DNA from: a virus
IMG/VR virus record: IMGVR_UViG_3300048592_000962
Coordinates: 32,001-96,000 of that record
Length of the DNA stretch: 64,000 nt
Direction: 5' to 3' (one strand)
Shown here: piece after piece, positions 4,823 through 56,649 of the stretch
How positions within the stretch are numbered: the first letter of the stretch is position 1
Layout of the letters: every line of letters starts with the position of its first letter
Notes under the pieces: generated by a model
Told to the model about the DNA's origin: nothing
What the model saw: only the letters and a program-made list of their open reading frames with translations
Databases searched by the model: none
Position numbers and translations under genes: made by a program

Positions 4823-4867
4823 GTCGTCTCCGGTGGGTGTGTGTGCCCGCTCTTCGGGTTGCGTGAC

Positions 4868-4888
4868 GTGCGTCGAACGTTCTGTCAA
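4868..4888 (-). promoter_or_regulatory. TTGACA -35 box abutting an operator-like motif copy (GAACGTTCGACGCAC)
   Basis: Motif shared with 6851, 10869 and 61744. No good -10 seen. Confidence 0.5.
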
Positions 4889-15466: not shown

Positions 15467-16066
15467 ATGCCGATGCTCCGTCGATCTCACTACCAACGTC
15501 GCTACAACGCTGCGGTCGGAACGGTCGAGCCCTACCGAGGGACAGACCAGACGGTCGCGGTGATGTCGAGGCTCGTCCGCGACATACGTCCGCGTCAGAT
15601 GATTTCGACGGCGTTGGAGAGCGAACGCAGTCTGAAGGTGAGACGTCACACGGAGCAGATCGTCGGCAACATCCGGCCGAAGGACTACAGCTCCGAGATC
15701 ATCGCCATCTGCAAGTGGTGGGGCAACGCCGGCAGGTACACGAGAGATCCGCTTCACGTCGAGATGCTCCGAACACCAGAGCGTTTGATCGATGATGCGA
15801 TGGCCGGGAAGCTCGCGGCGGATTGCGATGAGTTCGCGACGGCAATCGCGGCCTGTTGCCTCGCGGTTGGGTCCAGGGCTCAGTTCGTCACCGTCGGATT
15901 TCAGCCGAGGCTTCCGGGTCAACCGAAGATTCACACGCACGTGTTCTGCCGGGCTCAGGACCCTCGAACCAAGGTTTGGTGGGTGCTGGATCCTGTCGCA
16001 GGACGCCGGACCGCTCAGATGCTGAAGCGGGTCAAGCAGTACACGATCTTCGAGGTGGATTCATGA
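15467..16066 (+). CDS. transglutaminase-like (Cys-His-Asp) protein, candidate virion maturation protease
   Basis: ADCDEFA...HTHVF...WWVLDPV triad pattern, immediately upstream of the membrane-protein cluster. Confidence 0.8.
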   Translation: MPMLRRSHYQRRYNAAVGTVEPYRGTDQTVAVMSRLVRDIRPRQMISTALESERSLKVRRHTEQIVGNIRPKDYSSEIIAICKWWGNAGRYTRDPLHVEMLRTPERLIDDAMAGKLAADCDEFATAIAACCLAVGSRAQFVTVGFQPRLPGQPKIHTHVFCRAQDPRTKVWWVLDPVAGRRTAQMLKRVKQYTIFEVDS

Positions 16067-16353
16067 GTTACTACCTCCGCAAGGGACCGATAGGGTCTAC
16101 CGAGCCGATGGAGCTGTCGCCTGCGGCAAGGACCGTCTCGGTGGGGTATCGCGTGGGTGCCGCGGTGGCGACGCCCCTGCTCGTGTATCACGGCTACCGA
16201 CGCAACGAGTCGATCGGCTGGGCTGTGGTCTGGGGGCTCATCGGTGGCGGATTCTGGGTGTTCGGGGTGCCACTGGCGCTCGCTCAGGGGTTCGCGAAGC
16301 GAAAGGTGCGATCGAACGCGAGGCGTCGTCGCACGAGCAGGAGAACGCGATGA
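16063..16353 (+). CDS. small membrane protein with Arg tail
   Basis: MSYY start, hydrophobic segments, VRSNARRRR tail. Confidence 0.8.
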   Translation: MSYYLRKGPIGSTEPMELSPAARTVSVGYRVGAAVATPLLVYHGYRRNESIGWAVVWGLIGGGFWVFGVPLALAQGFAKRKVRSNARRRRTSRRTR

Positions 16354-17902: not shown

Positions 17903-17916
17903 GGCTGGAGACGACC

Positions 17917-19326: not shown

Positions 19327-19330
19327 AGCC

Positions 19331-19624
19331 GTGCGAGCAGACGATTACGTGAGCGACGACGCGAAGTACGCGCAGCAGGTCGAAGACATGAGCGGCGTGC
19401 ACCATCACCAGGCGGGCATGGCGCCCTATCCGCTGTACGGTGTGCCTCCGCTCGGGCAGGAGATGGAGGTCGCGATTCCGTTCTATCGCCGGCCGATCTT
19501 CTGCTACCCGGTCGGCATCGCGATCGGATTCGGCATCGGCTACGCGTTCTTCGAGTGGTTCAAGCCGAAGTACATGAAGTCCAACGGCAAGAAGAAGAAG
19601 TCGAAGGACGAATCGGAGGAGTGA
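19331..19624 (+). CDS. small membrane protein
   Basis: PLGQ, TM, MKSNGKKKK. Confidence 0.75.
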   Translation: MRADDYVSDDAKYAQQVEDMSGVHHHQAGMAPYPLYGVPPLGQEMEVAIPFYRRPIFCYPVGIAIGFGIGYAFFEWFKPKYMKSNGKKKKSKDESEE

Positions 19625-19625
19625 C

Positions 19626-19949
19626 GTGAGCTACAAGGTCAACAGGGCGCTCGGGTTTCAGCGCTGGGGCGTGACGAATCCGTTCGTTTTCGCTGACCTC
19701 AGCCAGCCGCAACGGCTCCGTGGCGGTGTCTCTCCAGTGGTGTTTCAGACGCAGCCTCCATCGCTTCGATCGGTTCATCTCGGTCAGCTTTCGCCGGCCG
19801 AAGAGCTGAAGAGAGCGGAGCGCATGGAGACGATTGCGATTGCGGGATTCGCGGTGAGCTTGGCCTCGCTGTATCTCGGCTGGCAGCAGTTCAGCAACAA
19901 GAAGAAGATGGCCTCCAATCGGAGGAAGCGAAGGAAGGCAGCGCGATGA
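19626..19949 (+). CDS. small membrane protein
   Basis: MSYK..ALG, HLGQ, TM, MASNRRKRR. Confidence 0.75.
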   Translation: MSYKVNRALGFQRWGVTNPFVFADLSQPQRLRGGVSPVVFQTQPPSLRSVHLGQLSPAEELKRAERMETIAIAGFAVSLASLYLGWQQFSNKKKMASNRRKRRKAAR

Positions 19950-20836
19950 CGTACTACGCAACCGCCGGTCTCGGGTACGGCGTGGACATCTCTCACTACG
20001 GTGCCCCCTACCAGGGCATGCTCGGCCTTGGGCAGGCGACGTGGTCGCCGGGTCCGGGGCAGACACCGGCCGATGATCCGCGCATGGTGAAGAAGTTCGC
20101 CGTGGTGCGGTCGGTCTATCGCGTGCGGAACGTTCCGAGCGACAAGGCGGGACGCCTCGCAGATCTTCTTCTGTCCCGCGCGAGAACCCTGTTTCAGGGG
20201 AGCACGGTCCGGAAGATCGGGACGACCGGTTGGATGAACGACGGTCGTGTCGGATTCGAGGTGATTCTCGCCGCCGCGACGCGCGCCGGAGAGATCAAGC
20301 TCCGAAACGCAACGGCGCGTGACGTGGCCGGTCAGCTCGGTGGCGGAGCCGAGTTGTACGATGCGCAGACGATCATCTCGCCAACGGACTACATGCCGCT
20401 CGAAGACACTATGCTCCCGCCCGGCGAGCAGCCGGTGGCGACGATGGACTCGACTGGGACGCGCACGATCGGCGGCCTTCCGATCTGGGCCGCAGCAGGC
20501 ATCGGCGTCGCCGCGCTCGGAGCGCTCGCGTTCGTTATGACGCGGAAGAAGCCAGTAACCTCGAACCGACGTCAGCGAGCGCGACGTCGGATGAGGCCCA
20601 ATGGCCGTCCGGAGTTCGCGACCAAGGCCGAAGCCGAGTCGATGATTCGCGATCTGAACGCCACCTACAAGCGCATGGGATACCCGCCTCCGTCGCCTCC
20701 GATGCGTGCGGTACCAGATGGCAACGGCTGGAAGATCACCAGCGACCTTCTTGACTCGATCTACGGCGATAAACCGAAGAGTCGCAAGCGCAAGGTGTCG
20801 AAGAACATCTTGAGGCGACGCTCTGCCAGGAGGTGA
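19946..20836 (+). CDS. membrane protein with post-TM domain
   Basis: MTYYATAGLG, TM, VTSNRR..MRPNG, then an extra domain. Confidence 0.8.
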   Translation: MTYYATAGLGYGVDISHYGAPYQGMLGLGQATWSPGPGQTPADDPRMVKKFAVVRSVYRVRNVPSDKAGRLADLLLSRARTLFQGSTVRKIGTTGWMNDGRVGFEVILAAATRAGEIKLRNATARDVAGQLGGGAELYDAQTIISPTDYMPLEDTMLPPGEQPVATMDSTGTRTIGGLPIWAAAGIGVAALGALAFVMTRKKPVTSNRRQRARRRMRPNGRPEFATKAEAESMIRDLNATYKRMGYPPPSPPMRAVPDGNGWKITSDLLDSIYGDKPKSRKRKVSKNILRRRSARR

Positions 20837-20839
20837 GTC

Positions 20840-21382
20840 GTGAGCTACTCGCACCTTGGGTCTGCGCTGATCGGCCCGCAGAGAGCCACGAGCAGCGCGA
20901 AGAAGCCGGTTCTTCGCGTGAACCCGAAGCTCAAGCTTTCGCTGTCGCCATCCGCGATCAAGCCGAAGTCGGTGCTCGTGGTCGGCCCGAGCATTTCGTC
21001 TGCGCCGAAAGCTCCGGTGGTCACAGCCAAGCCCCCGCCTCCGGTCTTGTTCTTGCCGGCTCCGAAGCCGCCGGTGATGTCGACTCCTCCGCCCGCCGCG
21101 CCCCCGCCTGCGGATTCGACTCCGAAGCCGCCGGCAGATGTGTGGTCGGATTGGGAGACGGGGTCGCCGGAGATGCCGGCGGCAGCTGAGCAATCTGTCT
21201 ACGAGCCTCCTCCGCCAGAGGTTCAGGAGCCATCGCAGGCCGAACCGCTTGTGCCTGCAAAGTCGCTGCCGTGGGCGTGGATCGCTCTCGGGCTGACGGC
21301 CACTGCGCTCCTCGGGTACGCGGTGTTCAAGCGCAAGCCCGTGTCGCCGAACCGTCGGCGTCGTCGGAGGTCTCGTCGATGA
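20840..21382 (+). CDS. Pro-rich membrane protein
   Basis: MSYSHLG, Pro linker, TM, VSPNRRRRRR. Confidence 0.8.
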   Translation: MSYSHLGSALIGPQRATSSAKKPVLRVNPKLKLSLSPSAIKPKSVLVVGPSISSAPKAPVVTAKPPPPVLFLPAPKPPVMSTPPPAAPPPADSTPKPPADVWSDWETGSPEMPAAAEQSVYEPPPPEVQEPSQAEPLVPAKSLPWAWIALGLTATALLGYAVFKRKPVSPNRRRRRRSRR

Positions 21383-22095
21383 GTTATGCGCTTGGACAGG
21401 CGGCCGATTCCGCTTTGAAGGAGCAGACGGCCTTTGCGGAACAGACGTCGCTGACGGAGTTCTCCGACGGCTCGATCGAGGTGAGCAGTCCGAAGGTTGT
21501 GGTCTCTGCGCAGTACCGCGGTCAGTTCAGCGTGTACACGCAGCAGGGAACGAACCCGCCGTACATCGTCGTGTCTCGCGCGGATGCGCAGGCGAGAGGA
21601 GTGCCGATTCTGGCCGATCCGTGGGCCGCTTATCAGGCGGGTCAGAAGTTGCCCGCGCCGATGGCGGCTCAGGTGAAGGCGAGCGGCGTGCCGATTCCTC
21701 AGGCGGGCAAGCGGTGGATCCCGTGGGCGCTCGTGGGCGGCGGCTTGGCTGTCGCGCTCGGCCTTGTGCTCATGGTGTCGTTCAAGAGCATGAAGCCGAA
21801 TCGTCGTCGACGTCGTCGGCTAAGAGAGAACATGAGTCGTCGCGTTCCCTACGACAGCAAGCCGGTCACCAAGCATGGCAAACACGGGACCATGTATTTG
21901 TACGAGATCGAGTTCGAGGAGGATGAACGCGACGACGGGAGGCCGGAGTGGATGAGACGCTGGCAGACGTATGCTTACGATCAAGAGCATGCGATCGAAA
22001 GCTTTTACGAGTCATACGACCGCTCAAATCCGGGTGCGTCGTTGGATCTTCCGGTGAAAGTCGTTTCCGCGAAGCGGGTGATGAGGCGTCAATGA
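21379..22095 (+). CDS. membrane protein with post-TM domain
   Basis: MSYALGQ, TM, MKPNRRRRRRLRENM, then an ~85-aa domain. Confidence 0.8.
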   Translation: MSYALGQAADSALKEQTAFAEQTSLTEFSDGSIEVSSPKVVVSAQYRGQFSVYTQQGTNPPYIVVSRADAQARGVPILADPWAAYQAGQKLPAPMAAQVKASGVPIPQAGKRWIPWALVGGGLAVALGLVLMVSFKSMKPNRRRRRRLRENMSRRVPYDSKPVTKHGKHGTMYLYEIEFEEDERDDGRPEWMRRWQTYAYDQEHAIESFYESYDRSNPGASLDLPVKVVSAKRVMRRQ

Positions 22096-22652
22096 GCTAC
22101 CTGAGCGGTTACGGCGGAAGGCGCGCGTTCGGTGGGTTTGGGTACGGCTCGCTGGGCTCCGCCTTTCAGATCGGACCTACCAGCGACTCCCTGCGCTCCC
22201 TCCAAAGAGAGCTGGCGCGACTCGGCTACCTTCAGGGCGACAACGGTCCGTTCGGCGCCGATGGGTACTGGGGCCCTCGAACGGCTCTGGCTCTTCGGCA
22301 GGCGGCGACGTACTTGCGCTGGACGGATGCCCCCTACACGCCGACGAATGCGGACTCGTTGCGGTCCGGGTCGGTTGAGGTTCCGGACGATCTGATCGCT
22401 CGAATCCGAGCGGCGTCTCCTGACCCGAACGCAAGCCGCGCCGGGTCCGACCAGCCCGCGTCGATCGTCGACCCTGTCGACCCGGCGCCGTCTACCTCAC
22501 CGGTTCCTTCGACGCGTCTCGCGCGAGCCCCGTGGGTTGTTCCGGTGGCGGTGGGAGGGGTCACGCTGCTGGCGGTGGGTGCGCTCCTGCTGACGCGTGG
22601 GAAGAAGCCGGTGACATCGAACCGACGTCGGCGAGCGCGACGGCGCCGCTGA
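22092..22652 (+). CDS. peptidoglycan-binding-domain membrane protein
   Basis: LQRELARLGY..ADGYWGPRTALAL (PG_binding_1), TM, VTSNRRRR. Confidence 0.8.
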   Translation: MSYLSGYGGRRAFGGFGYGSLGSAFQIGPTSDSLRSLQRELARLGYLQGDNGPFGADGYWGPRTALALRQAATYLRWTDAPYTPTNADSLRSGSVEVPDDLIARIRAASPDPNASRAGSDQPASIVDPVDPAPSTSPVPSTRLARAPWVVPVAVGGVTLLAVGALLLTRGKKPVTSNRRRRARRRR

Positions 22653-22685
22653 TTTCGGGTACCGTAGGGCCAAGGCTGGGCTGGT

Positions 22686-23381
22686 ATGATCTACACCGAC
22701 GAAGAACTGAGCGAGATCGAGGGCTACGACGAGGACGACGAGGAGTCCGCCGCTCCGATGGTGGCGGCTCACGGGTCCTCGGGCGCATCCATGCAGGCAC
22801 CCGGAGCGATCCCGCTCTACCCACTTTCCCTGGCTCACCTTGGGCAGCAGCCGTCACCAGCGGCGGGAATGCTGGGCTTCGTGAAGAAGAAGGTCGGTCC
22901 GCTGCCTGTGTGGGCGTGGGCCGCGCTGGGCGTGGGTGTTGCGGGCGGCGGATGGTACTTCCTCAGTCGTCGCAAGAAGTCGGAAGGATCTGGCGAGGAA
23001 GATGCTGGGGGTCTCGCACAGAACGACGGCGGAGGAGATTCCGCACCGGCCGGCTGGTCGCCGAGTCGGTCGAGCTTCGCGGCTCAGTTGCAGCGTTTCT
23101 TCGACAAGAAGGGTCTCACGCAAGCGGTCGTTGTCTGGCATGACGCCGAGGACGCGCAGCGCAAGGGGAAGCTGAAGTTCGTTTCCCCGTTGATCAACGT
23201 GCAGGTCAAGGACAAGTCGGTGAAGGTCGACGCAGCGCTTCAGAAGTTCTGTCGTCGCGAAGGCCTGAACCCGACGCAGCACGACGATGGTTCAATCGGC
23301 CTCTACCCGCACACGGGCAAGAGGGGCAAGGCATGGGAAGACTACGTCGACGCACTGCGTGACGATGGTCAGCAAGTGTGA
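22686..23381 (+). CDS. membrane protein
   Basis: HLGQ, GPLPVWAW TM, C-terminal domain. Confidence 0.8.
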   Translation: MIYTDEELSEIEGYDEDDEESAAPMVAAHGSSGASMQAPGAIPLYPLSLAHLGQQPSPAAGMLGFVKKKVGPLPVWAWAALGVGVAGGGWYFLSRRKKSEGSGEEDAGGLAQNDGGGDSAPAGWSPSRSSFAAQLQRFFDKKGLTQAVVVWHDAEDAQRKGKLKFVSPLINVQVKDKSVKVDAALQKFCRREGLNPTQHDDGSIGLYPHTGKRGKAWEDYVDALRDDGQQV

Positions 23382-23388
23382 GGAAACC

Positions 23389-23835
23389 ATGAGCTACCAC
23401 GGACTCGGACAGGCATCGACGACGCTCACCAACACGACCACTGCGACCGTTGCGTCGATTCAGTGTGCCCTCCGTGCTCGTGGGGCGTCTATCTCAGTTG
23501 ATGGGCGGTTCGGTCCGAACACGCGCGCAGCGCTCGTGAGTCAGCAGACAGCGTATCTGCCGTCGGTGATTGGTCTACTCTTCCAGGATGCGTCGACTGG
23601 TGCGTCCTCGATTCAGATCAACAAGACGTTCTACGAGTGGCTCATGGGCAGTAGCTCATGTCGCGGGGCGACGCCGAGCGCGCCGAGCGCGCCGACAGAG
23701 ACGACTGTGCCGGAGTCACCGATCGAGATGCCTGTCGAGAGCGAGGGCACATCGTGGAAGATGTGGGCTCCGATCGGCGGCGCGGTCGCCCTTGTCGGGC
23801 TCGGCGTATACTTCCTGAAGCGCCGGAGGGGATGA
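23389..23835 (+). CDS. peptidoglycan-binding-domain membrane protein
   Basis: MSYHGLGQ; IQCAL..VDGRFGPNTRAAL; TM plus KRRR. Confidence 0.8.
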   Translation: MSYHGLGQASTTLTNTTTATVASIQCALRARGASISVDGRFGPNTRAALVSQQTAYLPSVIGLLFQDASTGASSIQINKTFYEWLMGSSSCRGATPSAPSAPTETTVPESPIEMPVESEGTSWKMWAPIGGAVALVGLGVYFLKRRRG

Positions 23836-24671
23836 TGCGATCTCTTGGACAGGTGCCGGCGCCGACTCTTCTCACGGGTTACTCGGCGCTCCAGACAGCG
23901 ATTATCGCCTTCGAGTCGAACGCTCTCACGCGCGCGGTGGTCCGCGCCTCGTCGGGCATTCCGGCGAACGTGATCGTGAAGGCCTTTGAGACGGCGCGGA
24001 CGAAGGCGTCATCGGCTCAGCCGCGAGAGATGTCGGAGACGGACGTCTTCGCGATGCTGCTGGGAACGCTCACCCAGGCTCGCACAGATCTCGTCCGCGC
24101 CAAGCTGTTCATGTACTCGACCGCGTCGGGGAACACAGCGGCGAGAGGAAAGTTCGAGCAGATACTCGCGGCAGATTTGCAGATGCTCCAGCAGGTCAGC
24201 AACATCTTGTCGCGAATGGTCGCCGAGGGCGCGATGCCGACTCTTACGAGACTCGTCGGAGGCACATCGGGGCTCGGGTTCATCACGATCGCGATCTCAG
24301 CCCTGCGGCTGGTGTGGTCGGCGATTCAGGCGTGGCAGGTGATTCAGGTTCGTCGTGAGAGGTATCTGCGTGAGCAGATTGCTCTGTGCGAGGAGCTGAC
24401 GCGTCGCGGGACGCCGTGTACACCGCAGCGGGTGGCGGAACTTCAGGCGGAGCTTCAGCAGCTCACCGATACGCCTGCGGCGAGGTTCTTGGACAGCGTC
24501 GGCGAGGGCATTCGCAACGTGACGAGCCCGTTCGACAACGTGGGCCAGGGGATCGGCAAGGGGCTGAAGATCGGCATTACCACGCTCTCGGTGGGCGTCG
24601 GACTCGTCGCGCTCTGGTGGGCGTGGCCTCTGATCAGCTCGACCAGGCGCAAGCGACGCGAGGCCGAGTGA
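23832..24671 (+). CDS. helical two-TM protein
   Basis: MRSLGQ; SGLG-TM; C-terminal TM and basic tail. Confidence 0.8.
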   Translation: MMRSLGQVPAPTLLTGYSALQTAIIAFESNALTRAVVRASSGIPANVIVKAFETARTKASSAQPREMSETDVFAMLLGTLTQARTDLVRAKLFMYSTASGNTAARGKFEQILAADLQMLQQVSNILSRMVAEGAMPTLTRLVGGTSGLGFITIAISALRLVWSAIQAWQVIQVRRERYLREQIALCEELTRRGTPCTPQRVAELQAELQQLTDTPAARFLDSVGEGIRNVTSPFDNVGQGIGKGLKIGITTLSVGVGLVALWWAWPLISSTRRKRREAE

Positions 24672-25183
24672 TGCTTGCTCAGGTGCAGTTCAGCCCGCAC
24701 CCGCCTCCTCCCAAGGCGCCGAACGTGGGCCTCATGGTCGGCTGGGCAGCCGTGGTCGCCATGGCGGGAGGCATCTTCTACTACACGCTTCGAGGTCCGG
24801 TTCGAGCAAACCGGCCGCGAAGAAATCCGAAGCTCGTCGGCAATCCCGACGTACGTGACGCAGTCAGCGATGCCGTTCGTTTTCGAGGCGTGACACTGCG
24901 GTCGGCGGGAGCGCCATCTGGCGTTGTGAAGGCGTCCAAGGCTCTCCCAGAAGGCGTGTATCGCATCGCGAGCAGCGGCGACGTTACGGTGTATCGTAGC
25001 CAGGATGTTCCCTCTTCGTTGATCACGTCCGTTCGTATCGCGGCTACCAAGTCGAGCGAGTCTCAGGTGTGGCTCGTGAAGGTGGCTCGTTCGCCTGCTG
25101 GTCGACTGAAGCGCGTTCCGATTCGTGGATACAGGAAGCGTCGAGGCCGCGTGGAGACAGTGTTTCGCATCGAGGAAGCATGA
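24671..25183 (+). CDS. membrane protein with post-TM basic domain
   Basis: TM followed by VRANRPRRNPKLVGNP. Confidence 0.75.
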   Translation: MLAQVQFSPHPPPPKAPNVGLMVGWAAVVAMAGGIFYYTLRGPVRANRPRRNPKLVGNPDVRDAVSDAVRFRGVTLRSAGAPSGVVKASKALPEGVYRIASSGDVTVYRSQDVPSSLITSVRIAATKSSESQVWLVKVARSPAGRLKRVPIRGYRKRRGRVETVFRIEEA

Positions 25184-25767
25184 CCTCCAAGCGGACATCC
25201 CGTCGCTTCGTGAAGAGACGAACCTCGCGACTTGCGAGAAACGGCAAATCATCTCGTCGATCTACTCAGAACAAAGACGTTCGTCGACTCATTGATCTTG
25301 CGGAGTCGCAGGGTTGGGCCATCGAGACGACGGGTGGAAATCACTTACGGTTCATTCCTCCGGATCCCACCAAGCCGATGGTGCATACGTCGAGCACGCC
25401 CTCCGACCGCCGGGCGGTGCAAAATCTTGAGGCGCAGCTGAGGAAGTCGGGCTTGATCGTCGCCAAGCAGGACGACAAGAAGTCGCCGAAGAAGAATCCG
25501 TCGAGCGAGCCGTGGCTCATGCGGGATTACCGTGCGGGGATGATGTTGGAGTTCATCCTCGGTGATCGAAACGCGGGGGTGCCTCCCGGCACTGTCGCGG
25601 TTGTCGATGCGGTTCGAGGCGGCGGTCTGGACGTCACCATCATGGACTCGTACGACCCGTCGTTGGTCGGCGAGCGTGTGGCGGTGGAGCTGGTCTACGA
25701 GCGGGATGGGCGGCTGCATCGAACGACGCCAGATCAGCTGGCGCTCTACTGGCGCACGGTGGAGTGA
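25180..25767 (+). CDS. HicA-like domain protein with basic leader and second domain
   Basis: LIDLAESQGWAIETTGGNHLRF..STPSDRRAVQNLEAQLRKSG. Confidence 0.7.
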   Translation: MTSKRTSRRFVKRRTSRLARNGKSSRRSTQNKDVRRLIDLAESQGWAIETTGGNHLRFIPPDPTKPMVHTSSTPSDRRAVQNLEAQLRKSGLIVAKQDDKKSPKKNPSSEPWLMRDYRAGMMLEFILGDRNAGVPPGTVAVVDAVRGGGLDVTIMDSYDPSLVGERVAVELVYERDGRLHRTTPDQLALYWRTVE

Positions 25768-26138
25768 TGCGGAGCCGAGGTGCAGGTTGTACGATCCGAG
25801 CGGCCAGCACGGGTCGAGTTCTTCTATTGAGGAGAAGCCCCACGTGCCCGCCGGGCGGAGTTTGGTCGATTCCAGCGGGCGGTGTAGATCGCGGCGAAAC
25901 GGCCATCTTTGCGGCCCTTCGTGAGTTGGAGGAGGAGACCGGTTTCTGCGGCGACGTGTCAATACTGTTTCATTCGCAGGACAGTCAGTTTCTCAATCTT
26001 GCTTGCGAGGTGAAGTCTGAATTCCGCGTAAGGCTGAACTGGGAGAACGACGCAGCGGGGTGGTTCGACATCGATGACTTGCCAGATCCGTTGTACCGGG
26101 GACTTCGTCCGTTCCTGAGGCGAGTCGTCTCGTGGTAG
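25764..26138 (+). CDS. NUDIX hydrolase
   Basis: Nudix box GGVDRGETAIFAALRELEEETG. Confidence 0.9.
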   Translation: MMRSRGAGCTIRAASTGRVLLLRRSPTCPPGGVWSIPAGGVDRGETAIFAALRELEEETGFCGDVSILFHSQDSQFLNLACEVKSEFRVRLNWENDAAGWFDIDDLPDPLYRGLRPFLRRVVSW

Positions 26139-27965: not shown

Positions 27966-27991
27966 CTCCCTGGCGCGGGTCGTTCTAGGCT
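27962..27991 (+). promoter_or_regulatory. sigma70-type promoter TTGACT-N18-TAGGCT
   Basis: Upstream of the core/capsid operon. Confidence 0.6.
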
Positions 27992-28056
27992 CTTCCTCGA
28001 AGACCTGGGGCGCTCCTCCCCGCTGCTGATGCAGGTCGATAGGGAGCAGTGCGTCC

Positions 28057-30771
28057 GTGGGTCTGGCTTACAAGCGGAGTACGACCAAAACGGCCCGTGC
28101 CTACGAGCGATCGAGGGGCATGGAACCGAATGGTGGTCTTCGGCCGAATCCCGGCGTGACTGCGCTCATGACAGTCAATCCGCGACGTGGTCGTGGTCGC
28201 GTGCGTGAGAACCCGTTCCAGTGGATCGAGGGTCGAGGGCAGCGACATCGGCACGTTTCGAAGCCCTATGCGTCGCTGGATGCGGCTCGTGGGTGGAAGA
28301 AGCGGAGTCCGGCTACCAAGGCACGTCTTTACCCCGTCGATGAACGTGGGACGATCGTCTCGCGTCCCCTCAGCTCGAAACTCACAGGAAACAGAGGGAG
28401 TAGCAGCATGGCGTACAACATCGGTGCACTCCGAAGGGCGATGCGATCGAACCCCAGGGGTACGGGCTCGTCCATGTCCGAGCACGCCTCGACGGGCGGA
28501 GTGTCGGTGCGCTCGAACGGCCGCAAGCGTCGGAAGGCGTCGCGCAAGGCGAGCCGTCGTCGCGTCAGTCGCAACCCGAAGTACGTGGTGGTGAACCGCA
28601 AGCGACGCTCGCGCAAGGCGAGTCGTCGTCGGGTGACGCGCAACAGCCGTCGTCGCCGCAGCCGCCGGACTTCGGTGCGTCGGAACAGTCGTCGTCGTCG
28701 GAGTCGTCGCACGTCGATGCGTCGCAACAGCCGTCGTCGCCGCAGCCGCCGGACTTCGGTGCGTCGGAACAGCCGTCGTCGTCGGAGTCGTCGTCGGATC
28801 TCGCGCAACCGGTCGAGCCGGTCGAGCGCGTCGACGGCGGCGTACCGCAGCGGCTACGATCGGATCTTCGGCAAGAAGAAGAGGTCGTCCAAGCCCGCGT
28901 CGGCTCGCAAGACGTCGAAGAAGAGCGGACGGAAGTCGTCGCGCCCGATTCGCACGATCGAGATCGAGGAGACGGTCACCGAGATCAAGCCGCGTCGTCG
29001 CAAGTCTTCGCGGAAGTCCTCGCGGAAGTCGTCCGCTCGCAAGTCGAGCCGTCGGTCGTCCGCCAGGGGTCGTCGTTCGTCGAGGAAGAGCGGCCGTCGG
29101 TCGCGTCGTTCCTCGAAGAAGGGCGGCTACTACTTCGGTCGTCGTCGGGTCAGCAAGCGCGGGAAGGAGTACCTCGACAAGTACATCACCCGCGGCTACA
29201 TGCCCTCGGTCGCGCCGGTGTACCGCACGGGCAAGTCTCGTTCGGGTCGCCCCGCCGTCCTCGTGTACCCGCCGGGTACGGGTCACGGTCGTCTCTCCTC
29301 GCGGAAGGGTCGTGGTCACACGTCCAAGGGTCGCGGCAAGCGTCGCGTGAGCGCTCGGGCGTACGGCGCGAGCTTCTTCGGGGCGAGGAAGCGCCGCGTG
29401 ACGGCGAACCGCCGTCGGAGCCGTCGTCGCAGGAGCCGTCCGGGTCTCTACGCGAATCGTCGGCGGAGCCGTCGTCGCCGGAGCCGTCGGTCGAGTCTGC
29501 GTCCCAACCGTCGCAGGAGCCGTCGGAGCCGTCGTCGCCTGACCCGCAACCTGCTCACGACGAGCAAGGCGCGGTTCTCGGGTTCGGGCAAGAGCCGCAA
29601 GGGTCGCCCGACGGGCAAGACGTTCCAGGTGCTGATGTACGGTCCGAAGTCCAAGACCAAGAGCGGTCGGCGGATGTCGGGCTACCCGGTCTACGTTCCG
29701 GGTCACGTCGTGGAGCGTGGTGCGGTGCGTCGCTACCGGAAGCTCGGTGGTGCGGCTCTGGACGCACATCGTCGTGCGACCAGCGCGGGATACCGCGAGA
29801 GGAAGAAGTACCCGAAGCGTCGCGGCGTGACGCGGAACAGCCGCAGGAGCAGGAGGACCAGCATGCGTCGGAACCCCAGGTACGTGGTGGTCAATCGCCG
29901 CCGTCGCAGTCGTCGAAGCAGCCGCAAGGCACGGCTTCGCAGGAACCAGACGGTGTTCGGTGCCGACCTCACGCGCGACGTGCTCAAGCCGGTCGCCGGT
30001 GGCACGGCGGGCTTCGTGGCGGCTCGTCTGCTCTCCAACGGTCTCGCCAACGTCGAGATGCTTCGCGGCATCCTCGACAAGGACAAGAGCGCGGCGGAGG
30101 CGGGCAACACGAAGATCGCGGCGAACCTGCTCGGGATCGTGGCGACGCTCGGCCTGGCCCGGAAGGTCAAGGTCATCGGCGACAACCGCGGTGCCCTCGT
30201 CACGGGCATGGGTCTCGCGCTCGCCGATCGTCTGCTCGCGAAGTTCGCGGGTGACTCGGGCTACCTCTCGGGCTTCGGCGAGTACGTCTCGCAGCCGCTC
30301 GGGGAGTACGTCTCGCAGCCGCTCGGCGCCTACGTCTCGGACCCGTCGATGGGCGAGTACGTCGACCAGCCGCTCGGCGCCTTCGAGGCGGCGGCCGGCA
30401 TGGGCACGCTGTACGCGGCGGCCGGCTACCACGAGGGCATCGATCCCGCCGATCAGGGCTCGGTCGACGGTCTCATGGACGTCATGGAAGCGGCGGCCGG
30501 CATGGGCAGCCCGATGATGTACGCGACCGCGGGCATGGGCACGCTGTACGCAGCGGCCGGCATGGGCGCCGAGGCGGATGCGGAGCTTCAGGCGTACTAC
30601 GCCAGCCAGCAGCCGCCCTTCGTCTCGACGCAGACGCCCACCGATCTCGCGCGTCCCGTCACGCACGTGATGCCCCACGACAAGCGCGTTCCGACGTCGC
30701 TCGTCACGCCCGAGGGCAAGGGCTACGCGGGTGGTCTCTTCGCGCGCAACCTCTTCGCGGGGATGTTCTGA
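28057..30771 (+). CDS. protamine-like Arg/Ser-rich core polyprotein with membrane domain and C-terminal Tyr/Gly repeats
   Basis: Tandem RRNSRRRRSRRTS[VM] units, three hydrophobic helices, EYVSQPLG/YAAAGMG repeats. Strong codon bias. Second start with a strong RBS at 28408. Confidence 0.85.
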   Translation: MGLAYKRSTTKTARAYERSRGMEPNGGLRPNPGVTALMTVNPRRGRGRVRENPFQWIEGRGQRHRHVSKPYASLDAARGWKKRSPATKARLYPVDERGTIVSRPLSSKLTGNRGSSSMAYNIGALRRAMRSNPRGTGSSMSEHASTGGVSVRSNGRKRRKASRKASRRRVSRNPKYVVVNRKRRSRKASRRRVTRNSRRRRSRRTSVRRNSRRRRSRRTSMRRNSRRRRSRRTSVRRNSRRRRSRRRISRNRSSRSSASTAAYRSGYDRIFGKKKRSSKPASARKTSKKSGRKSSRPIRTIEIEETVTEIKPRRRKSSRKSSRKSSARKSSRRSSARGRRSSRKSGRRSRRSSKKGGYYFGRRRVSKRGKEYLDKYITRGYMPSVAPVYRTGKSRSGRPAVLVYPPGTGHGRLSSRKGRGHTSKGRGKRRVSARAYGASFFGARKRRVTANRRRSRRRRSRPGLYANRRRSRRRRSRRSSLRPNRRRSRRSRRRLTRNLLTTSKARFSGSGKSRKGRPTGKTFQVLMYGPKSKTKSGRRMSGYPVYVPGHVVERGAVRRYRKLGGAALDAHRRATSAGYRERKKYPKRRGVTRNSRRSRRTSMRRNPRYVVVNRRRRSRRSSRKARLRRNQTVFGADLTRDVLKPVAGGTAGFVAARLLSNGLANVEMLRGILDKDKSAAEAGNTKIAANLLGIVATLGLARKVKVIGDNRGALVTGMGLALADRLLAKFAGDSGYLSGFGEYVSQPLGEYVSQPLGAYVSDPSMGEYVDQPLGAFEAAAGMGTLYAAAGYHEGIDPADQGSVDGLMDVMEAAAGMGSPMMYATAGMGTLYAAAGMGAEADAELQAYYASQQPPFVSTQTPTDLARPVTHVMPHDKRVPTSLVTPEGKGYAGGLFARNLFAGMF

Positions 30772-30821
30772 GTCGAGGTCTCTGACCTCTCTCTGAGCAA
30801 ACCAGATTTCGGAGCAAGCAC

Positions 30822-31565
30822 ATGGCACGTCGTCGCAGGACTCGCCGAAGCTCGCGTCACATCCGCATGAACAGCCGTCGTCGGCGTCGTCGGAGCAGCC
30901 GCCTCTCGCTGAAGATGAACCGACTCGTTCGGAACATGTTCGGGGCGGACATCGCCAAGGACGTCGTGATCCCGGTTGCGGGCGGCGTCGTGGGCTTCGT
31001 CGCCGCTCGCTACCTCGGCAACATGCTGGCGGAGAAGGGGCTGATCAGCTCCGACCCTCGTGTCGGCAAGTCGCTCGCGGCGGCGGCAGGCATCCCGGCC
31101 ACCTTCTTCCTCGCGAAGAAGAGCCCGGTGGTGTCGCGCAACAGCAACATGATCGCGCTCGGCATGGGCCTGGCGGCGGCGGAGGGGTGGCTGCGAGACA
31201 TGCCTCTGCTCGGCGGCAGCCCGGCGGCGGCGGCGTTGACCACGCCGGCTCCGGCTCCGGCTCCGACGGGTGATGGCACGTCCGGCATCGGTGCCTACTA
31301 CAGCGCGCCGATGGCTGGTCTCGCCGACTACTACTCGGAGGGGATGCTCGGCGGTCTCGGGGCCGATCCGGGCAACCAGGGCGCGGTCGAGGACGTGATG
31401 GACGCGATGGAGTCCGTTTCGACGGTGACTCCGACGGACCTGGCGATGCCGGCTCCGAATCGTCCGGAGGTGGCTCCGATCGCCGAGCCGTTCGCGGCTG
31501 GCGACAAGGGGTACGCGGGCGGCTTGTTCGCGCGCAACCTCTTCTCGGGGATGTACGGATCCTGA
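30822..31565 (+). CDS. short paralog of the core protein
   Basis: FGADIAKDVVIPVAGG..GFVAAR and KGYAGGLFARNLF are shared with the previous gene. Confidence 0.85.
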   Translation: MARRRRTRRSSRHIRMNSRRRRRRSSRLSLKMNRLVRNMFGADIAKDVVIPVAGGVVGFVAARYLGNMLAEKGLISSDPRVGKSLAAAAGIPATFFLAKKSPVVSRNSNMIALGMGLAAAEGWLRDMPLLGGSPAAAALTTPAPAPAPTGDGTSGIGAYYSAPMAGLADYYSEGMLGGLGADPGNQGAVEDVMDAMESVSTVTPTDLAMPAPNRPEVAPIAEPFAAGDKGYAGGLFARNLFSGMYGS

Positions 31566-31746: not shown

Positions 31747-32529
31747 ATGCCGAAGATCGTGGGTACCAGGGAGCGCGTTCATCAGCCGTTCTACGATTCG
31801 CTCATCCGAGTCGATGGGTCGGGTGACCTTCGCCAGGGCAACGTCGGCGTGTTCGGCGCCGTTCAGAGCCGCAGCCAGCTCTTCGTTCGTCAGGGTGCCG
31901 ACGTCGCCGTCAGCAACCTCACGACCGGTGGCTTCTTCCCGTCGGATCAGACGTTCGTCACGCTCGCGGTTCGCGTGTGGACGTACTTCCGGTTCAACGT
32001 GGAGTCGCAGCGCACGAACGCGCAGAACGTGACGGGTCCCGTCGCGTCGCTCGCGGGCGTGACGACCGACCGCATCCAGCGCGTCCACAAGCTCTACCAC
32101 CAGGCGGAGAACCAGCTCTTCTGGCAGTTCATCGCCGGTGACAAGCCGCAGCTGACGACCTTCACCGCCTACACCCCGGCGGCCGGTGGTCTCGACGGCT
32201 TCTTCGCGGACACGCGCCTGCCGCGTGCGAACAACGGCGTTCCGACCAGCGCGGCGCTCATGCGTCTCGCGCGTCCGATCCTCGTCCCGCCGCGTCAGGG
32301 CTTCCAGGTCGTGGCGATCGCCTCGCCCATCGGCCAGGCGCAGGGTGCGTCCATCATCGACCAGCTGAACGGCGCGGTCCCGAACAACGACCCGTGGGGC
32401 GCCGCCTCGACGGGTGGCACCGTGACGGGCACCGTCGGCACCGACGGTCTCACGACCACGGGCAAGGACGACATCGAGAAGGACATCAAGTACCTGATCG
32501 ATGGCATCCACTCGCGCGACGTGCTCTGA
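31747..32529 (+). CDS. probable major capsid protein (beta-rich, jelly-roll-like)
   Basis: 260 aa with extreme codon bias and no TM. Last gene before a terminator, downstream of the core proteins. QPFYDS..SNL..G.FP..F pattern. Fold is inferred. Confidence 0.6.
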   Translation: MPKIVGTRERVHQPFYDSLIRVDGSGDLRQGNVGVFGAVQSRSQLFVRQGADVAVSNLTTGGFFPSDQTFVTLAVRVWTYFRFNVESQRTNAQNVTGPVASLAGVTTDRIQRVHKLYHQAENQLFWQFIAGDKPQLTTFTAYTPAAGGLDGFFADTRLPRANNGVPTSAALMRLARPILVPPRQGFQVVAIASPIGQAQGASIIDQLNGAVPNNDPWGAASTGGTVTGTVGTDGLTTTGKDDIEKDIKYLIDGIHSRDVL

Positions 32530-32556: not shown

Positions 32557-32593
32557 AGGCCCGCACTCCGAAAGGGGTGCGGGCTTCTGCTTT
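32557..32593 (+). terminator. intrinsic terminator
   Basis: aggcccgcactcc-GAAA-ggggtgcgggctt followed by a T-rich tail. Confidence 0.8.
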
Positions 32594-32606
32594 CCGTCGC
32601 AGGCTC

Positions 32607-32635
32607 TTGACGACCTTCCCGAATCGATGTAGCAC
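32607..32635 (+). promoter_or_regulatory. promoter TTGACG-N17-TAGCAC
   Basis: 7 nt upstream of GTG 32643. Confidence 0.45.
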
Positions 32636-32642
32636 CAGTCTG

Positions 32643-33863
32643 GTGCGCGACGCTGCGGCTGCTTGTCTATTGGGAGCGATTTACGGCGACGGAAGCCTCG
32701 AAGACCGAACGTCTTCGGTCAAGGTTGCGGTGAGCGCTGACATTAGAAAGCGACCCGCATGGTCCGGTCACATCATCGCCCTGTTTGAGCGCGTTCTCGG
32801 AGAGCCGCCTCTTCAATCGCGCCGCACTGCAACTCCTCATTTTGTCGAGCATTACCTTCACTTGCCGGCGGAACGGGTGTGGGACACGTTTGGTGTCACC
32901 AGCAAGTATGTGCCGGGTTATCCTCCGCGGCTCGAAGATGGCACCTCGAACCCTGATTCGCGTAAGCGTACGCCGCCGGAATGGGTCGAGATGTATGCAG
33001 GTAGATTCGCGCTTGGTCTTGTCGAGACGGACGGCTGGTTTCTTCCGCGCAGGGACAGGCGTTGCGATTCTTCTCGCTACGAGTTTGGGTTTGCGCAGAA
33101 GGACGAGATGTTAGCGTTGTGGATGTGGACACGTCTGGTTTCGATTGGTGTTCATGCGGGTTTTGGGTGGGGTCGAGGTAGCGGGACGTGGTGGACGCGA
33201 GTGAGTCGACAGGATCAGCTCAGCGTCGTCGCTGACTGGCTCGGCTCGCCATGTGCCAAGTGGGATGAGATATCACAGTTCGTAAACCCCGGCGTGTCTC
33301 CCGAGGCGCCTGACTTTGTAGCGGACCAGTGGCGCCTACTTCGAGCGCGGGAGCTGTTTGAGCGCAACAGAGTGCACGAAGAGCGGCCTGGTGAATACGA
33401 GTCGCCTTCGCGCGCTGGTGTCGGGTCATATATGCGTCGCGCAGATGCTGTTTTGACGTACGGCGAGGCGCGTTCGATTGTTCTTTCCATGCGCCATAGG
33501 CCGCGAACGCGCCTAGAATACTTGCGCGTTGCTTCCGACCATGGATTGCCGACACAGCCGGAGAAGCAGTGGCCGGAGGAGTGGTTGAGATACGGCGGTT
33601 ATCCAGGTTTTCTTGACCCGGAGTTCGTCCGCATCGAACCGCACTGGGTGTCAGCAGAGGCCGCTCGTCGCACTCTCGGCATCGGGCACTCCGTCTGGAA
33701 GAGACTTGTTGCAGACCTAAAGCCTGCCGGATCAGTCGCACACAAGATGTTCTACGACCCTTCCGTTCTCGGTGACCACCTTTTGTCCGTTGCGGACTCT
33801 AGGATGCGCCGAGCGGACGCTGTGCGGCTAGCGTCGCAGATCGGAAGTCTCTGTGCGACGTAA
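32643..33863 (+). CDS. LAGLIDADG homing-endonuclease-like protein with C-terminal DNA-binding repeat
   Basis: Two motifs, LLGAIYGDGS and ALGLVETDGW; C-terminal YGEAR..GLPTQPEK..W..GYPGFL. Confidence 0.75.
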   Translation: MRDAAAACLLGAIYGDGSLEDRTSSVKVAVSADIRKRPAWSGHIIALFERVLGEPPLQSRRTATPHFVEHYLHLPAERVWDTFGVTSKYVPGYPPRLEDGTSNPDSRKRTPPEWVEMYAGRFALGLVETDGWFLPRRDRRCDSSRYEFGFAQKDEMLALWMWTRLVSIGVHAGFGWGRGSGTWWTRVSRQDQLSVVADWLGSPCAKWDEISQFVNPGVSPEAPDFVADQWRLLRARELFERNRVHEERPGEYESPSRAGVGSYMRRADAVLTYGEARSIVLSMRHRPRTRLEYLRVASDHGLPTQPEKQWPEEWLRYGGYPGFLDPEFVRIEPHWVSAEAARRTLGIGHSVWKRLVADLKPAGSVAHKMFYDPSVLGDHLLSVADSRMRRADAVRLASQIGSLCAT

Positions 33864-35070
33864 GTTGTACATCGACAGCGATGTGCTGTCCGAGGCGCGC
33901 AATCGAGTATCCGCGACGTTCGACGAGTTTGAGAAAGTCTACGTCTCGTTCTCAGGAGGCAAAGACTCAACAGTCATGCTCGACATCGTAGCCACGGAGG
34001 CGAGGCTCCGCGGAAGGCGCTTCGGACTACTGTTTGTCGATCTTGAGGCACAGTACACGGCAACCATTGCTTTCGCAGAGTCACGCTTTGCTGCGTACGC
34101 AGACGTTGCGGACCCATTCTGGGTGGCCCTTCCACTGTCGCTCAGAAATGCCGTGAGCGTGCTGGAACACAAGTGGACGTGCTGGGACCATAGGGCGAAA
34201 GACAGGTGGGTCCGAAATCCACCGCATTTCGCAATCACAGACGAATCGCATTACGACTGGTTTCGACACGGCATGGAGTTCGAGGATTTCATCGTCGAGT
34301 GGGCTAAATGGTACTCAGGTCGGTGCTTTACGGCCTGCCTTGTCGGAATACGCACTGACGAGTCTATCAACAGGTTTCGAACCATCATGTCGGACACCAA
34401 AGGCACTCACGGCGGTAAGCCGTGGTCGACACAAGTGCCCGGCACGAACGTGTACAACGTGTATCCGATATACGATTGGAGTACGGCAGACATCTGGACC
34501 TATCACGCAAAGATGCGAGTTCCGTACAACCCTGTATACGACATGATGCATGCGGCAGGCTTGTCGCCGTCTCAGATGAGGATTTGTCAGCCATATGGAG
34601 ACGATCAGCGCAGGGGCCTGTGGCTGTATCACGTACTTGAGCCGGACACATGGACGCGCGTAGTGGCCAGGGTGGCTGGAGCAAACTTTGGCGCAGAATC
34701 GTCCCGTGCCCGCGGGAACATCAATGGTGTGGGGCGCGTCCAACTTCCAGAGGGCCATACCTGGCAGAGTTACGCGACGATGTTGGTGGAGAGCATGCCG
34801 CCGCACATGGCAGAGCACTACCGAACAAAGATCGGCGTATTTCTGAGGTGGTATGCCGATAAAGGCGGGTACGCCGACGGCATTCCGGATGAGGCTGACA
34901 GGACCGACGAGGCAGAGAAGAGAGCGCCATCTTGGAGAAGGGTCTGCAAGGCCATTCTTAGGAACGACTACTGGTGCAAGTCGTTGGGGTTTTCGCAGCA
35001 CAAGTCGGGCGCCTACGAGTCATACCTGCAACGCATGAGGGATCGGAGAATGCAATGGGCGACATCGTAG
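33853..35070 (+). CDS. PAPS-reductase-like/DUF3440 protein (IbrA/YbdN family)
   Basis: VSFSGGKDS PP-loop, LVGIRTDES, YPIYDW, MRICQPYGDDQRRGL, ILRNDYWC. Confidence 0.9.
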   Translation: MRRKLYIDSDVLSEARNRVSATFDEFEKVYVSFSGGKDSTVMLDIVATEARLRGRRFGLLFVDLEAQYTATIAFAESRFAAYADVADPFWVALPLSLRNAVSVLEHKWTCWDHRAKDRWVRNPPHFAITDESHYDWFRHGMEFEDFIVEWAKWYSGRCFTACLVGIRTDESINRFRTIMSDTKGTHGGKPWSTQVPGTNVYNVYPIYDWSTADIWTYHAKMRVPYNPVYDMMHAAGLSPSQMRICQPYGDDQRRGLWLYHVLEPDTWTRVVARVAGANFGAESSRARGNINGVGRVQLPEGHTWQSYATMLVESMPPHMAEHYRTKIGVFLRWYADKGGYADGIPDEADRTDEAEKRAPSWRRVCKAILRNDYWCKSLGFSQHKSGAYESYLQRMRDRRMQWATS

Positions 35071-35690
35071 CTCGGGCACGCAAGTTGTTTGCTGAACTTG
35101 ACGCGATGGATCTCGATGAGCGCGTGGAGTCGATCAACGCGATTCGTGAGGCGCTTGCGGAGAGGTCGCCATTTGCGAGCCACCCGGTTGACCTTGTCCG
35201 ATGGGTCCGAGCGACCGATGTGGTTGCGAACAGCTACAACCCGAACACCGTGGCGCCACCAGAGATGGAGCTTCTGCGTTTGTCGATCGAGTCCGATGGT
35301 TACACGCAGCCTGTCGTCGCGAACAGAGAGGCGACCGGTTACGAGGTGGTTGACGGGTTTCACCGGTCGAAGGTTGGCAAGGAGTCCGTCTCTGTAAAGC
35401 AGGCGACGCTGGGGTACTTGCCGGTCGTTCAGATCCGTGCGTCGAGGGGAGGCGTACACGATCGGATGGCCGCAACCATTCGGCATAACAGGGCCAGGGG
35501 CAAGCACGGTGTCACGGAGATGTCAGCCATCGTGCTGGACCTGACGAGGCGAGGCTGGTCGTCGGCCAAGGTGGCGAAAGAGCTTGGGATGGATCCGGAC
35601 GAGGTTCTTCGGCTCAAACAGATTACTGGCTTGGCAGAGCTTTTTGCGGACAGGGAGTTCTCGAAGGCATGGATTCCTTCGGATGAGTAG
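35055..35690 (+). CDS. ParB-like protein (IbrB/YbdM family)
   Basis: NSYNPNTVAPPEM, DGYTQPVV, VVDGFHR, ATIRHNRARG, ELGMDPDEVLRLKQITG. Confidence 0.9.
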   Translation: MGDIVARARKLFAELDAMDLDERVESINAIREALAERSPFASHPVDLVRWVRATDVVANSYNPNTVAPPEMELLRLSIESDGYTQPVVANREATGYEVVDGFHRSKVGKESVSVKQATLGYLPVVQIRASRGGVHDRMAATIRHNRARGKHGVTEMSAIVLDLTRRGWSSAKVAKELGMDPDEVLRLKQITGLAELFADREFSKAWIPSDE

Positions 35691-55767: not shown

Positions 55768-56649
55768 ATGGACGACCGCCAGTTCGACGCCTACAGCAGC
55801 TCCGTCTCTGCACTCGCCAACCACCCGCACTACCCGGTGGGGCACGTGCTGCTCAAGAATCGTCGCCTGTTTGCCTCGATGGGCATCGAAGACCCCTTGG
55901 GACAGAAGCTCGGCAAGGGCACCTTCGGGCACGCCTTCAAGGTACCGCTACTCGGAGACAGCGTTCTGAAGCTGACCCGCGATCCGACCGAAATGCAGGC
56001 TGCCTTCCTTCTTCGTGGCAAGAAGAGCCGGCGCATCGTGCACGTGTACGACGTGTGGGCGATCCCTGGTACCTTCCACAAGGACCTACGCGGCTGGTAC
56101 CTGATCCACAGGGAATACCTGCACCCTCTGTCGAAGCGCGACAAGAATCTGATCGAGAACCTGTTCGCACTCTTCGACGACGAGAGTCTCGACCTGGTGA
56201 TCCCTCGCTCACAGAAGCAGCACGCCACGCTGGCCAAGTGGCGCGGCTACATCCGGGACATGCTCGGCGGAGAGGGTCCGGTCAGCGGAGAGGGTGAGGA
56301 CGGAGTCCTTCGGTTCGGTGCCACGCACCTGAAGAAGGAAGTGCAGCGCGCGATGATCCTGTTGATTCAGATCGGAGAGGCCGTCGAGGAGATGCGCCGT
56401 GCAGGCATCGACTGGGAAGACATCCACTCGGACAACATGTTGCGCAACGCAAAGGGTGACCTCGTGATTGGGGACATCGGGTTGGGCATGATGCAGGAGG
56501 ACTTCGAGCAACAGGTCCCCTGGCTCACCCACGAGGTGGCTACGGCGTACGTCGCTGCTAACCGCCCTCGCCCTCATCCTCCAGAACATCAGCCGGAGAC
56601 GGCAAGCGATCCTCGGCGCCAAGAGCAAGAAGCGACTCAAACGACCTGA
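55768..56649 (+). CDS. protein-kinase-like protein
   Basis: LGKGTFG, VLKLT, EDIHSDNML, IGDIG. Confidence 0.85.
   Translation: MDDRQFDAYSSSVSALANHPHYPVGHVLLKNRRLFASMGIEDPLGQKLGKGTFGHAFKVPLLGDSVLKLTRDPTEMQAAFLLRGKKSRRIVHVYDVWAIPGTFHKDLRGWYLIHREYLHPLSKRDKNLIENLFALFDDESLDLVIPRSQKQHATLAKWRGYIRDMLGGEGPVSGEGEDGVLRFGATHLKKEVQRAMILLIQIGEAVEEMRRAGIDWEDIHSDNMLRNAKGDLVIGDIGLGMMQEDFEQQVPWLTHEVATAYVAANRPRPHPPEHQPETASDPRRQEQEATQTT

Follow-up and report, generated by a model that had tools for sequence, protein, structure and literature searches.

In tailed and PRD1-like phages, naked DNA is pumped into a shell formed beforehand; condensation of the genome by protein is considered a trait of eukaryotic and of some archaeal viruses. 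Nucleoprotein cores have been described for SPV1, adenovirus and chlorella viruses (PMC8459092, PMC4246237, PMC3281028). The ascovirus protein P64 (SfAV-1a ORF048), of 64 kDa and pI 12.2 with 14 tandem 13-residue Arg/Ser units, is an abundant virion component that condenses genomic DNA; newly made P64 is phosphorylated, and the form in virions is not (PMC6163548). In a review of membrane-containing phages the words condense, nucleoprotein and histone do not occur (PMC6356626), and our searches of literature and databases found no described phage protein of comparable kind. Here we analyze a 64,000-nucleotide stretch of viral DNA (the window; G+C content about 63%), corresponding to bases 32001-96000 of the 159,872-bp IMG/VR record IMGVR_UViG_3300048592_000962, which has direct terminal repeats and is rated complete. 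The + strand of this window carries, within a run of late-type genes, an open reading frame (ORF) of 904 codons at 28057-30771 that encodes a strongly basic protein, and beside it a short paralog and a capsid candidate.

An annotation made in a first pass from the sequence alone had proposed that this protein condenses DNA. That proposal finds partial, indirect support in a conserved, extremely cationic protein encoded just upstream of the best conserved, capsid-like gene, in the lack of a detected terminase and in a repeat unit much like that of P64. We propose a virion-internal, C-terminally anchored core protein that neutralizes DNA and is probably made from three in-frame starts, a reading that we judge evenly poised between right and wrong. 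The features of the locus are as follows (all + strand; aa, amino acid residues; TRF, Tandem Repeats Finder).

28057..30771: full basic-protein gene, 904 aa, 101.4 kDa, pI 12.0, net charge +197; start GTG 28057
28042..28046: Shine-Dalgarno-like GGGAG, 10 nt 5' of GTG 28057, read directly
28057..28491: conserved N-terminal island, aa 1-145, unique to the full-length product, with invariant columns in 14 orthologs
28394..28410: internal start 1, GAGGGAG followed by ATG 28408 (M118, 'MAYNIGALRRAM'), giving a product of 787 aa; in 9/9 orthologs
28492..29241: variable Arg/Ser/Lys-rich region, aa 146-395, net +101, predicted to be disordered; length and sequence differ between orthologs
28639..28793: tandem 42-nt repeats encoding four to five copies of the 14-aa unit NSRRRRSRRTS[VM]RR (TRF)
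29242..29406: aa 396-450, comprising the end of the middle island and then a basic stretch (alignment)
29548..29826: third conserved island, aa 498-590 (LTRNLL..MYGPKS..GYPVYVP..GGAA.DAH; alignment, AlphaFold)
29851..29865: internal start 2, AGGAGG followed by ATG 29863 (M603, 'MRRNPRYVVVN'), giving a product of 302 aa; in 9/9 orthologs
29872..29895: second copy of the motif N-P-R-Y-V-V-V-N (first copy, 28573-28596); both Asn are invariant
29974..30246: helical domain, aa 640-730, candidate membrane or oligomerization anchor, also present in the paralog (AlphaFold)
30275..30379: GEYVSQPLG-type Tyr/Gly repeats (TRF, 24 nt x 4.2), differing in copy number among orthologs
30715..30768: conserved C-terminal peptide (..TPEGKGYAGGLFARNLFAGMF), invariant or near-invariant in 14 orthologs and 30 paralog homologues
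30822..31565: short paralog, 247 aa, with a short Arg tail, a three-helix domain and the same end peptide; 63 metagenomic homologues

The 904-aa ORF is a genuine, conserved gene subject to purifying selection. Its codon bias had been taken at the outset as a sign that it is real. G+C content at its third codon positions (0.81) is like that of its neighbours, the frame is uninterrupted in 14 relatives, and the proportion of nonsynonymous differences (pN) is far below that of synonymous differences (pS). Ortholog DNA was fetched around several of the 63 homologues of the paralog, and in all relatives examined one intact ORF of about 749-938 aa lies directly upstream of the paralog; a search seeded with residues 1-150 retrieved nine further full-length orthologues. 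The 14-sequence ortholog alignment contains many invariant columns over its whole length. Nei-Gojobori counts on five orthologues, with synonymous sites near saturation, place pN well below pS in 7/7 segments, low-complexity ones included, and pN/pS approaches 1 only in the variable basic region of the most distant pair.

The GTG at 28057 aligns with the ATG of relatives, at the head of a 'MALVYKRS' N-terminus. Two downstream starts were rejected: M22 (MEPN), with residues 1-21 being conserved, and M527, the public gene call, which is not conserved in relatives. The record's own call at this locus is a 378-aa fragment beginning at an unconserved internal ATG, and in one relative (L005) an antisense ORF is called inside the basic gene (4386-5009, - strand). 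An antisense ORF of 947 aa in the window (27985-30828, - strand) and other overlapping ORFs were likewise dismissed, as by-products of a CGN-rich coding strand, because conservation and the pattern of pN/pS suit the + frame. Public callers choose antisense ORFs or internal ATGs, and members of the basic-protein family are annotated as fragments of 292-421 aa; since gene callers consistently mis-split the ORF, the family is hidden in databases. Scans of Pfam (E<=0.01), PHROG and NCBIfam found no family for the 904-aa protein or its paralog, and the paralog had no tblastn match in 50,697 GenBank phage records. A scan of viral contigs retrieved nothing with a single-sequence query and three loci with an alignment query, while a host-seeking scan of genome contigs returned only four short contigs of metagenome-assembled genomes, binned to discordant phyla.

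The protein (184 R, 108 S and 58 K residues) is sharply divided in charge. Residues 1-634 have a net charge of +206 (R 28%, K 8%, S+T 20%) and residues 635-904 a net charge of -9; across the 14 orthologs the basic part ranges from +124 to +253, though the sequence of its variable region is poorly conserved, and the C-terminal part from -4 to -15. Earlier annotation had described about 600 residues of R/S/K-rich sequence with a regularly recurring Asn motif. The basic composition and the 14-aa tandem are as described; the basic part is not uniform repeat, and three islands interrupt it. TRF resolves 28639-28793 into a 42-nt unit (x 3.3) or an 84-nt period (x 1.8, 98% identity) encoding the 14-aa unit, whose strict period is confined to aa 196-251. 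Of the islands, the N-terminal one has dN/dS values of 0.15-0.38 and is modelled by AlphaFold with a predicted local distance difference test score (pLDDT) of about 60-68 at aa 70-110. The middle island, at about aa 355-415 (YYFGRRRV..EYLDKY..GRPAVLVYP), is modelled as short strands and a helix at aa 358-404 (pLDDT about 56), and further Arg runs lie between it and the third island. The two-copy motif, in its general form N-P-[KR]-Y-V-V-x-N, occurs as NPRYVVVN also in the basic tails of several homologues of the short paralog. The basic regions are disordered in the AlphaFold model built from the 14-sequence alignment (pLDDT 30-38). The 634-aa basic part holds 65 RS/SR dipeptides and 32 RR-x-[ST] sites and has no Cys at all, a feature found likewise in 13/14 orthologs.

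Two features of this coding sequence, a rule governing its Asn residues and a pair of conserved internal starts, are new findings of this analysis. An Asn motif punctuating the basic sequence had been noted before; it is present, and it is more specific than described, having the form phi-x-x-N with a hydrophobic residue (phi) at -3. All 16 Asn of aa 146-632 have V, I, L, M, F or Y at that position, a count with a mean of 2.45 in shuffled sequences and reached in 0/2000 of them, and the context holds for 23/23 Asn of residues 1-634. Enrichment is significant in each of the five orthologues tested. N132, N451, N498, N606, N613 and N630 are invariant and lie at island borders and just ahead of the helical domain. 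The motif is not confined to this protein: a count over the 172 ORFs of the genome gives 22 instances of phi-x-x-N followed by at least three Arg/Lys, in 13 ORFs (1.2 instances in shuffles), typically right after a single transmembrane helix at the C-terminus of late proteins beginning M-[ST]-Y. A reading of these Asn as N-glycosylation sequons was rejected, because the sites are not N-x-S/T.

Many late proteins encoded in the window at 16063-25183 have a common layout, with an M-[ST]-Y..[LM]-G N-terminus, an ectodomain, one transmembrane helix and a tail such as K-P-V-[TS]-[SP]-N-RRRRRR, this tail unit being the one repeated in the 904-aa protein. Examples are found at 16063-16353, 19626-19949, 19946-20836, 20840-21382, 21379-22095 and 22092-22652, and two of these late proteins have peptidoglycan-binding domains in the ectodomain.

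Both starts foreseen by the first-pass annotation (28057 and 28408) are real features, to which we add a third, at 29863. At each internal site GGAGG, AGGAG or GAGG stands about 6 nt before the ATG in all nine orthologues with DNA, and ATG 28408 is invariant. The Arg-Arg encoded there is typically AGG-AGG (or AGG-AGA, CGG-AGG), while two AGR codons serve in only 3.1% of the 582 Arg-Arg dipeptides of these genes; in one orthologue (L029) the amino acids at site 1 differ (K-E-K) and AGGAG is still kept. In synonymous-codon shuffles the probability of a Shine-Dalgarno-like sequence is 0.05-0.16 per ortholog at site 1 (0.76 in one) and 0.03-0.19 at site 2; the products over nine orthologues, 3.6e-9 and 6.3e-11 respectively, are valid only under independence and are weakened by relatedness. 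Such sequences precede only 2-4 of the 21-37 internal ATGs per gene. Both sites thus combine an in-frame ATG, a Shine-Dalgarno sequence at 5-9 nt and conservation beyond what the protein sequence needs, which suggests, as the simplest reading, three nested in-frame products of 904, 787 and 302 aa. The 302-aa form would have the layout of the 247-aa paralog, namely short Arg tail, helical domain, repeats and end peptide. Nested phage genes such as lambda C/Nu3 and T7 4A/4B likewise have an internal Shine-Dalgarno sequence and ATG within a longer ORF and yield products with identical C-termini; those belong to tailed phages and are experimentally proven, whereas the evidence here is comparative.

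The relationship of the C-terminal part to the adjacent short paralog, claimed earlier, holds for the peptide KGYAGGLFARNLF and for the helical domain as well (40% identity, E 1.8e-20). AlphaFold places helices at aa 640-664, 683-700 and 711-730 of the 904-aa protein (pLDDT 62-72), and in the paralog, modelled from 62 sequences, at aa 44-72, 79-100 and 102-124 (pLDDT 82-95). The former description of this part as a membrane domain is compatible with the three predicted helices, whose hydrophobicity is only moderate: the best 19-aa Kyte-Doolittle window of the 904-aa protein reaches 1.31 (usual threshold, 1.6), a single segment of the paralog attains that threshold, and the uncharged stretches are only 11-15 aa long. 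A role as membrane anchor is therefore plausible but no more. Foldseek found no significant counterpart of the paralog model in PDB or BFVD, its best, weak rows being PsaL, a membrane subunit of three helices; the full-length model (mean pLDDT 42) was too poor for a fold search.

Three other genes of the window, all on the + strand, enter into the interpretation.

31747..32529: capsid candidate, 260 aa, adjoining the paralog
15467..16066: transglutaminase-like Cys-His-Asp enzyme (possible protease), 12 kb upstream of the basic gene
55768..56649: divergent protein-kinase-like gene, with weak collinear kinase matches

The 260-aa protein is 87-97% identical to its counterparts in relatives whose basic protein is about 60% identical, far above its neighbours, and because of this identity the gene fits a major shell protein. 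An Atlas search gave a weak lead to PM2 P2 capsid domains (score 0.76), and a profile of the sequence found nothing in PDB. No match to TerL (Terminase_6N/TerL_ATPase, PF03237, PF03354), FtsK_SpoIIIE (PF01580) or Pox_A32 (PF04665) was found in the complete genome, nor was a terminase, portal or HK97 capsid among the top matches of 127 ORFs to Pfam and PHROGs; a Walker-A scan of the genome retrieved only a UvrD helicase, a MoxR-type AAA+ protein and a 281-aa ORF (genome positions 153677-154522) with coding-like third-position G+C. The negatives for ATPase and terminase are compatible with a tailless virus lacking a recognizable motor, though an absence of matches is no proof.

Under the reading that we favour, in which presence in the virion, DNA binding, anchoring and the ratios of isoforms are what we infer, the disordered Arg/Ser-rich N-terminal arm (about +200) would neutralize and condense the 160-kb genome inside the particle, while the acidic three-helix C-terminal domain and end peptide would hold the protein to an internal membrane or sub-capsid layer. 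By our computation, some 400-800 copies would suffice to balance 25-50% of the genome's 319,744 phosphate charges. Use of the starts at 28057, 28408 and 29863 would supply an anchor-only form of 302 aa beside DNA-binding forms of 904 and 787 aa, and the long forms would probably assemble in mixture with the 302-aa form and the paralog.

Ascovirus P64 is the closest functional analogue of this protein. Both are large proteins of pI about 12 that combine tandem 13-14-aa Arg/Ser units, SPSQRRSTS(V/K)(A/S)RR in P64 and NSRRRRSRRTS(V/M)RR here, with a non-repeat domain, the number of repeats varying between relatives; the likeness extends to a proposed kinase/phosphatase cycle, to genomes of 100-200 kb and to a virion with an internal membrane, which is putative here. 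Of the features that characterize the P64 family, tandem basic repeats of about 13 aa in a large protein of pI > 9 are found (14 aa x 4-5, pI 12.0, 101 kDa), and the 2-cysteine adaptor (pfam08793) is not, at the Pfam threshold given above and with no Cys in the basic part. P64 is not a homologue, because the 904-aa protein has neither the vs2C-ad motif nor a Cys in its basic part. The two differ further in that the basic part is C-terminal in P64 and N-terminal here, in mass (64 and 101 kDa) and in host (insect and bacterial), and P64 has neither a helical anchor domain common to a paralog nor internal starts.

Other known systems resemble the locus in part. Adenovirus pVII, pre-mu and V are Arg-rich condensers of double-stranded DNA in a tailless icosahedral capsid, their precursors being matured by the protease AVP at short motifs with a hydrophobic P4 residue to yield small basic peptides (PMC4246237). 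The AVP sites, (M/I/L)XGG-X or (M/I/L)XGX-G (PMC4246237), differ from phi-x-x-N, and adenovirus has separate small genes in place of one 904-aa chain, no membrane, and a packaging ATPase, IVa2. Homology to pVII or pre-mu (Adeno_VII, Adeno_PX) was not found in Pfam, PHROG or NCBIfam. Protamines, baculovirus P6.9 and the C-terminal domain of hepatitis B core are likewise Arg/Ser-rich, with DNA or RNA binding switched by Ser phosphorylation (PMC6163548), but are proteins of less than 15 kDa or short tails with no membrane-type anchor or conserved islands. VP1, the nucleocapsid protein of the portoglobovirus SPV1, belongs to a virus with an archaeal host and a 20-kb genome and forms an ordered filament with A-form DNA (PMC8459092). 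Corticovirus PM2 is tailless and membrane-containing with no known packaging motor, and its membrane proteins P3 and P6 are proposed to contact DNA during particle formation (PMC6356626); its genome is a supercoiled 10 kb, and it has no protamine-like protein.

Several points weigh against a DNA-condensing role within the particle. No homology to a known DNA-condensing protein was found (Pfam, PHROG and NCBIfam, 0 matches), the anchor helices are moderate in hydrophobicity, and the internal Shine-Dalgarno-like sequences could serve another role. The tailless, membrane-containing nature of the virus is a reading drawn from negative searches and weak leads. Topology matters as well: budding from the cytoplasmic membrane in the manner of PRD1 (PMC6356626) would put a cytoplasmic +200 domain outside the vesicle, facing the capsid and away from DNA, while assembly around DNA of the PM2 type (PMC6356626) would, by analogy, place the Arg-rich domains inside.

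An alternative that we regard as unlikely, put forward by the first-pass annotation, is that the chain is a polyprotein, cut after the Asn of phi-x-x-N by a viral protease, possibly that encoded at 15467-16066, into protamine-like peptides, with islands and anchor separated. The confinement of every Asn in the basic part to this context speaks for it, as do the invariant Asn that border islands or precede the helical domain, the same motif before the Arg tails of many other late proteins, and the preference of AVP, too, for a hydrophobic P4 residue (PMC4246237). The gene at 15467-16066 belongs to the core set of the lineage, with 67-69% identity in two complete relatives and 937 relatives of its product in a library of 1.84 billion proteins. 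Over 50 relatives the residues H158 and D175 never vary and C120 hardly does; 38 of the 50 match Transglut_core PF01841 (best E 1.3e-16), and the family profile matches both the LapG-type protease 4u65 (E 0.0018) and PNGase in PDB. The protein of the window itself lies below the Pfam cut-off (18.1 versus 23 bits). By these similarities it belongs to the transglutaminase-like Cys-His-Asp superfamily, which includes PNGase, cross-linkers and phage cell-wall isopeptidases as well as proteases, and it could be a maturation protease, a cross-linker or a wall hydrolase. It is the sole candidate Cys enzyme found, the adenain and Ulp1 families not having been searched in the genome. Against cleavage, the candidate gene is distant from the basic gene, and the Asn might instead play a structural part, in an Asx-turn ahead of an Arg run that would resemble the SPKK DNA-binding unit. 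The conserved internal starts offer another route to several products, and because they exist, and no protease specific for Asn at P1 was identified, cleavage is less needed.

Somewhat less probable still, in our estimate, is a matrix or scaffold whose cationic arms, not remaining on the packaged DNA, would bind anionic lipid to the capsid, start the assembly of DNA with membrane, or leave at maturation. The C-terminal domain and Tyr/Gly repeats common to the paralog would suit such a protein, as would the motifs present on other late proteins and the nested in-frame starts, for which phage genes of scaffold and protease, lambda C/Nu3 among them, are the classical case. The topological argument from PRD1, which places the domain outside the vesicle, applies here in its favour, and PM2 is proposed to enclose DNA as membrane and shell form (PMC6356626). 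Yet about +200 charges per chain are far above what lipid binding needs and match nucleic-acid binders, and the composition is like that of known DNA condensers (PMC6163548). A non-structural protein acting in the infected cell, for example as a compactor of the host nucleoid, an RNA binder or the basis of a virus-factory condensate, seems to us very improbable. Its long disordered Arg/Ser-rich composition would fit, since such regions drive nucleic-acid condensates in many systems; the gene, however, lies in a late structural module beside capsid-like genes and the paralog, and its motifs are common to the membrane proteins of that module.

If the protein does act as a DNA-condensing core, it would represent a different solution to packing 160 kb in a bacterial virus with no recognizable packaging ATPase, would link bacterial viruses to cores of the adenovirus, ascovirus and SPV1 types, and would offer a natural modular DNA-condensing protein. 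A broader proposal, which we consider improbable as a whole, is that viruses of this 160-170-kb lineage enclose their genomes without a motor, by co-condensation with membrane-anchored, 101-kDa protamine-like nested isoforms, and that phi-x-x-N with its Arg run constitutes a virion-wide code, for processing or DNA contact, in more than 12 membrane proteins.

It had also been suggested that the RS repeats are substrates of the kinase at 55768. The gene is conserved in three relatives, and its product matches Pkinase (E 0.0032, 17.3 bits; cut-off 31.7) and Bud32 (E 0.0013) weakly; its kinase matches in PDB all have E > 0.1, yet are collinear over the N- and C-lobes. Phosphorylation of the repeats by this protein might be proposed on the strength of that weak similarity. 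A kinase-like match in one relative (L019, G002:C1:124754-125482) has one in-frame TGA.

In the window, the row of capsid-like genes is split by a three-gene insert at 32577-35690 (a 428-aa ORF, a PAPS-reductase/DUF3440 gene and a ParB-like gene) of lower G+C content (0.58-0.62). Three relatives (L004-L006) lack the insert, and in them genes of 260-263, 307-311 and 230 aa come immediately after the paralog. Inside the late module, 25180-26138 encodes a protein that has an Arg-rich N-terminus and resembles HicA weakly (E 0.021) and, after it, a clear NUDIX hydrolase (E 6.8e-20).

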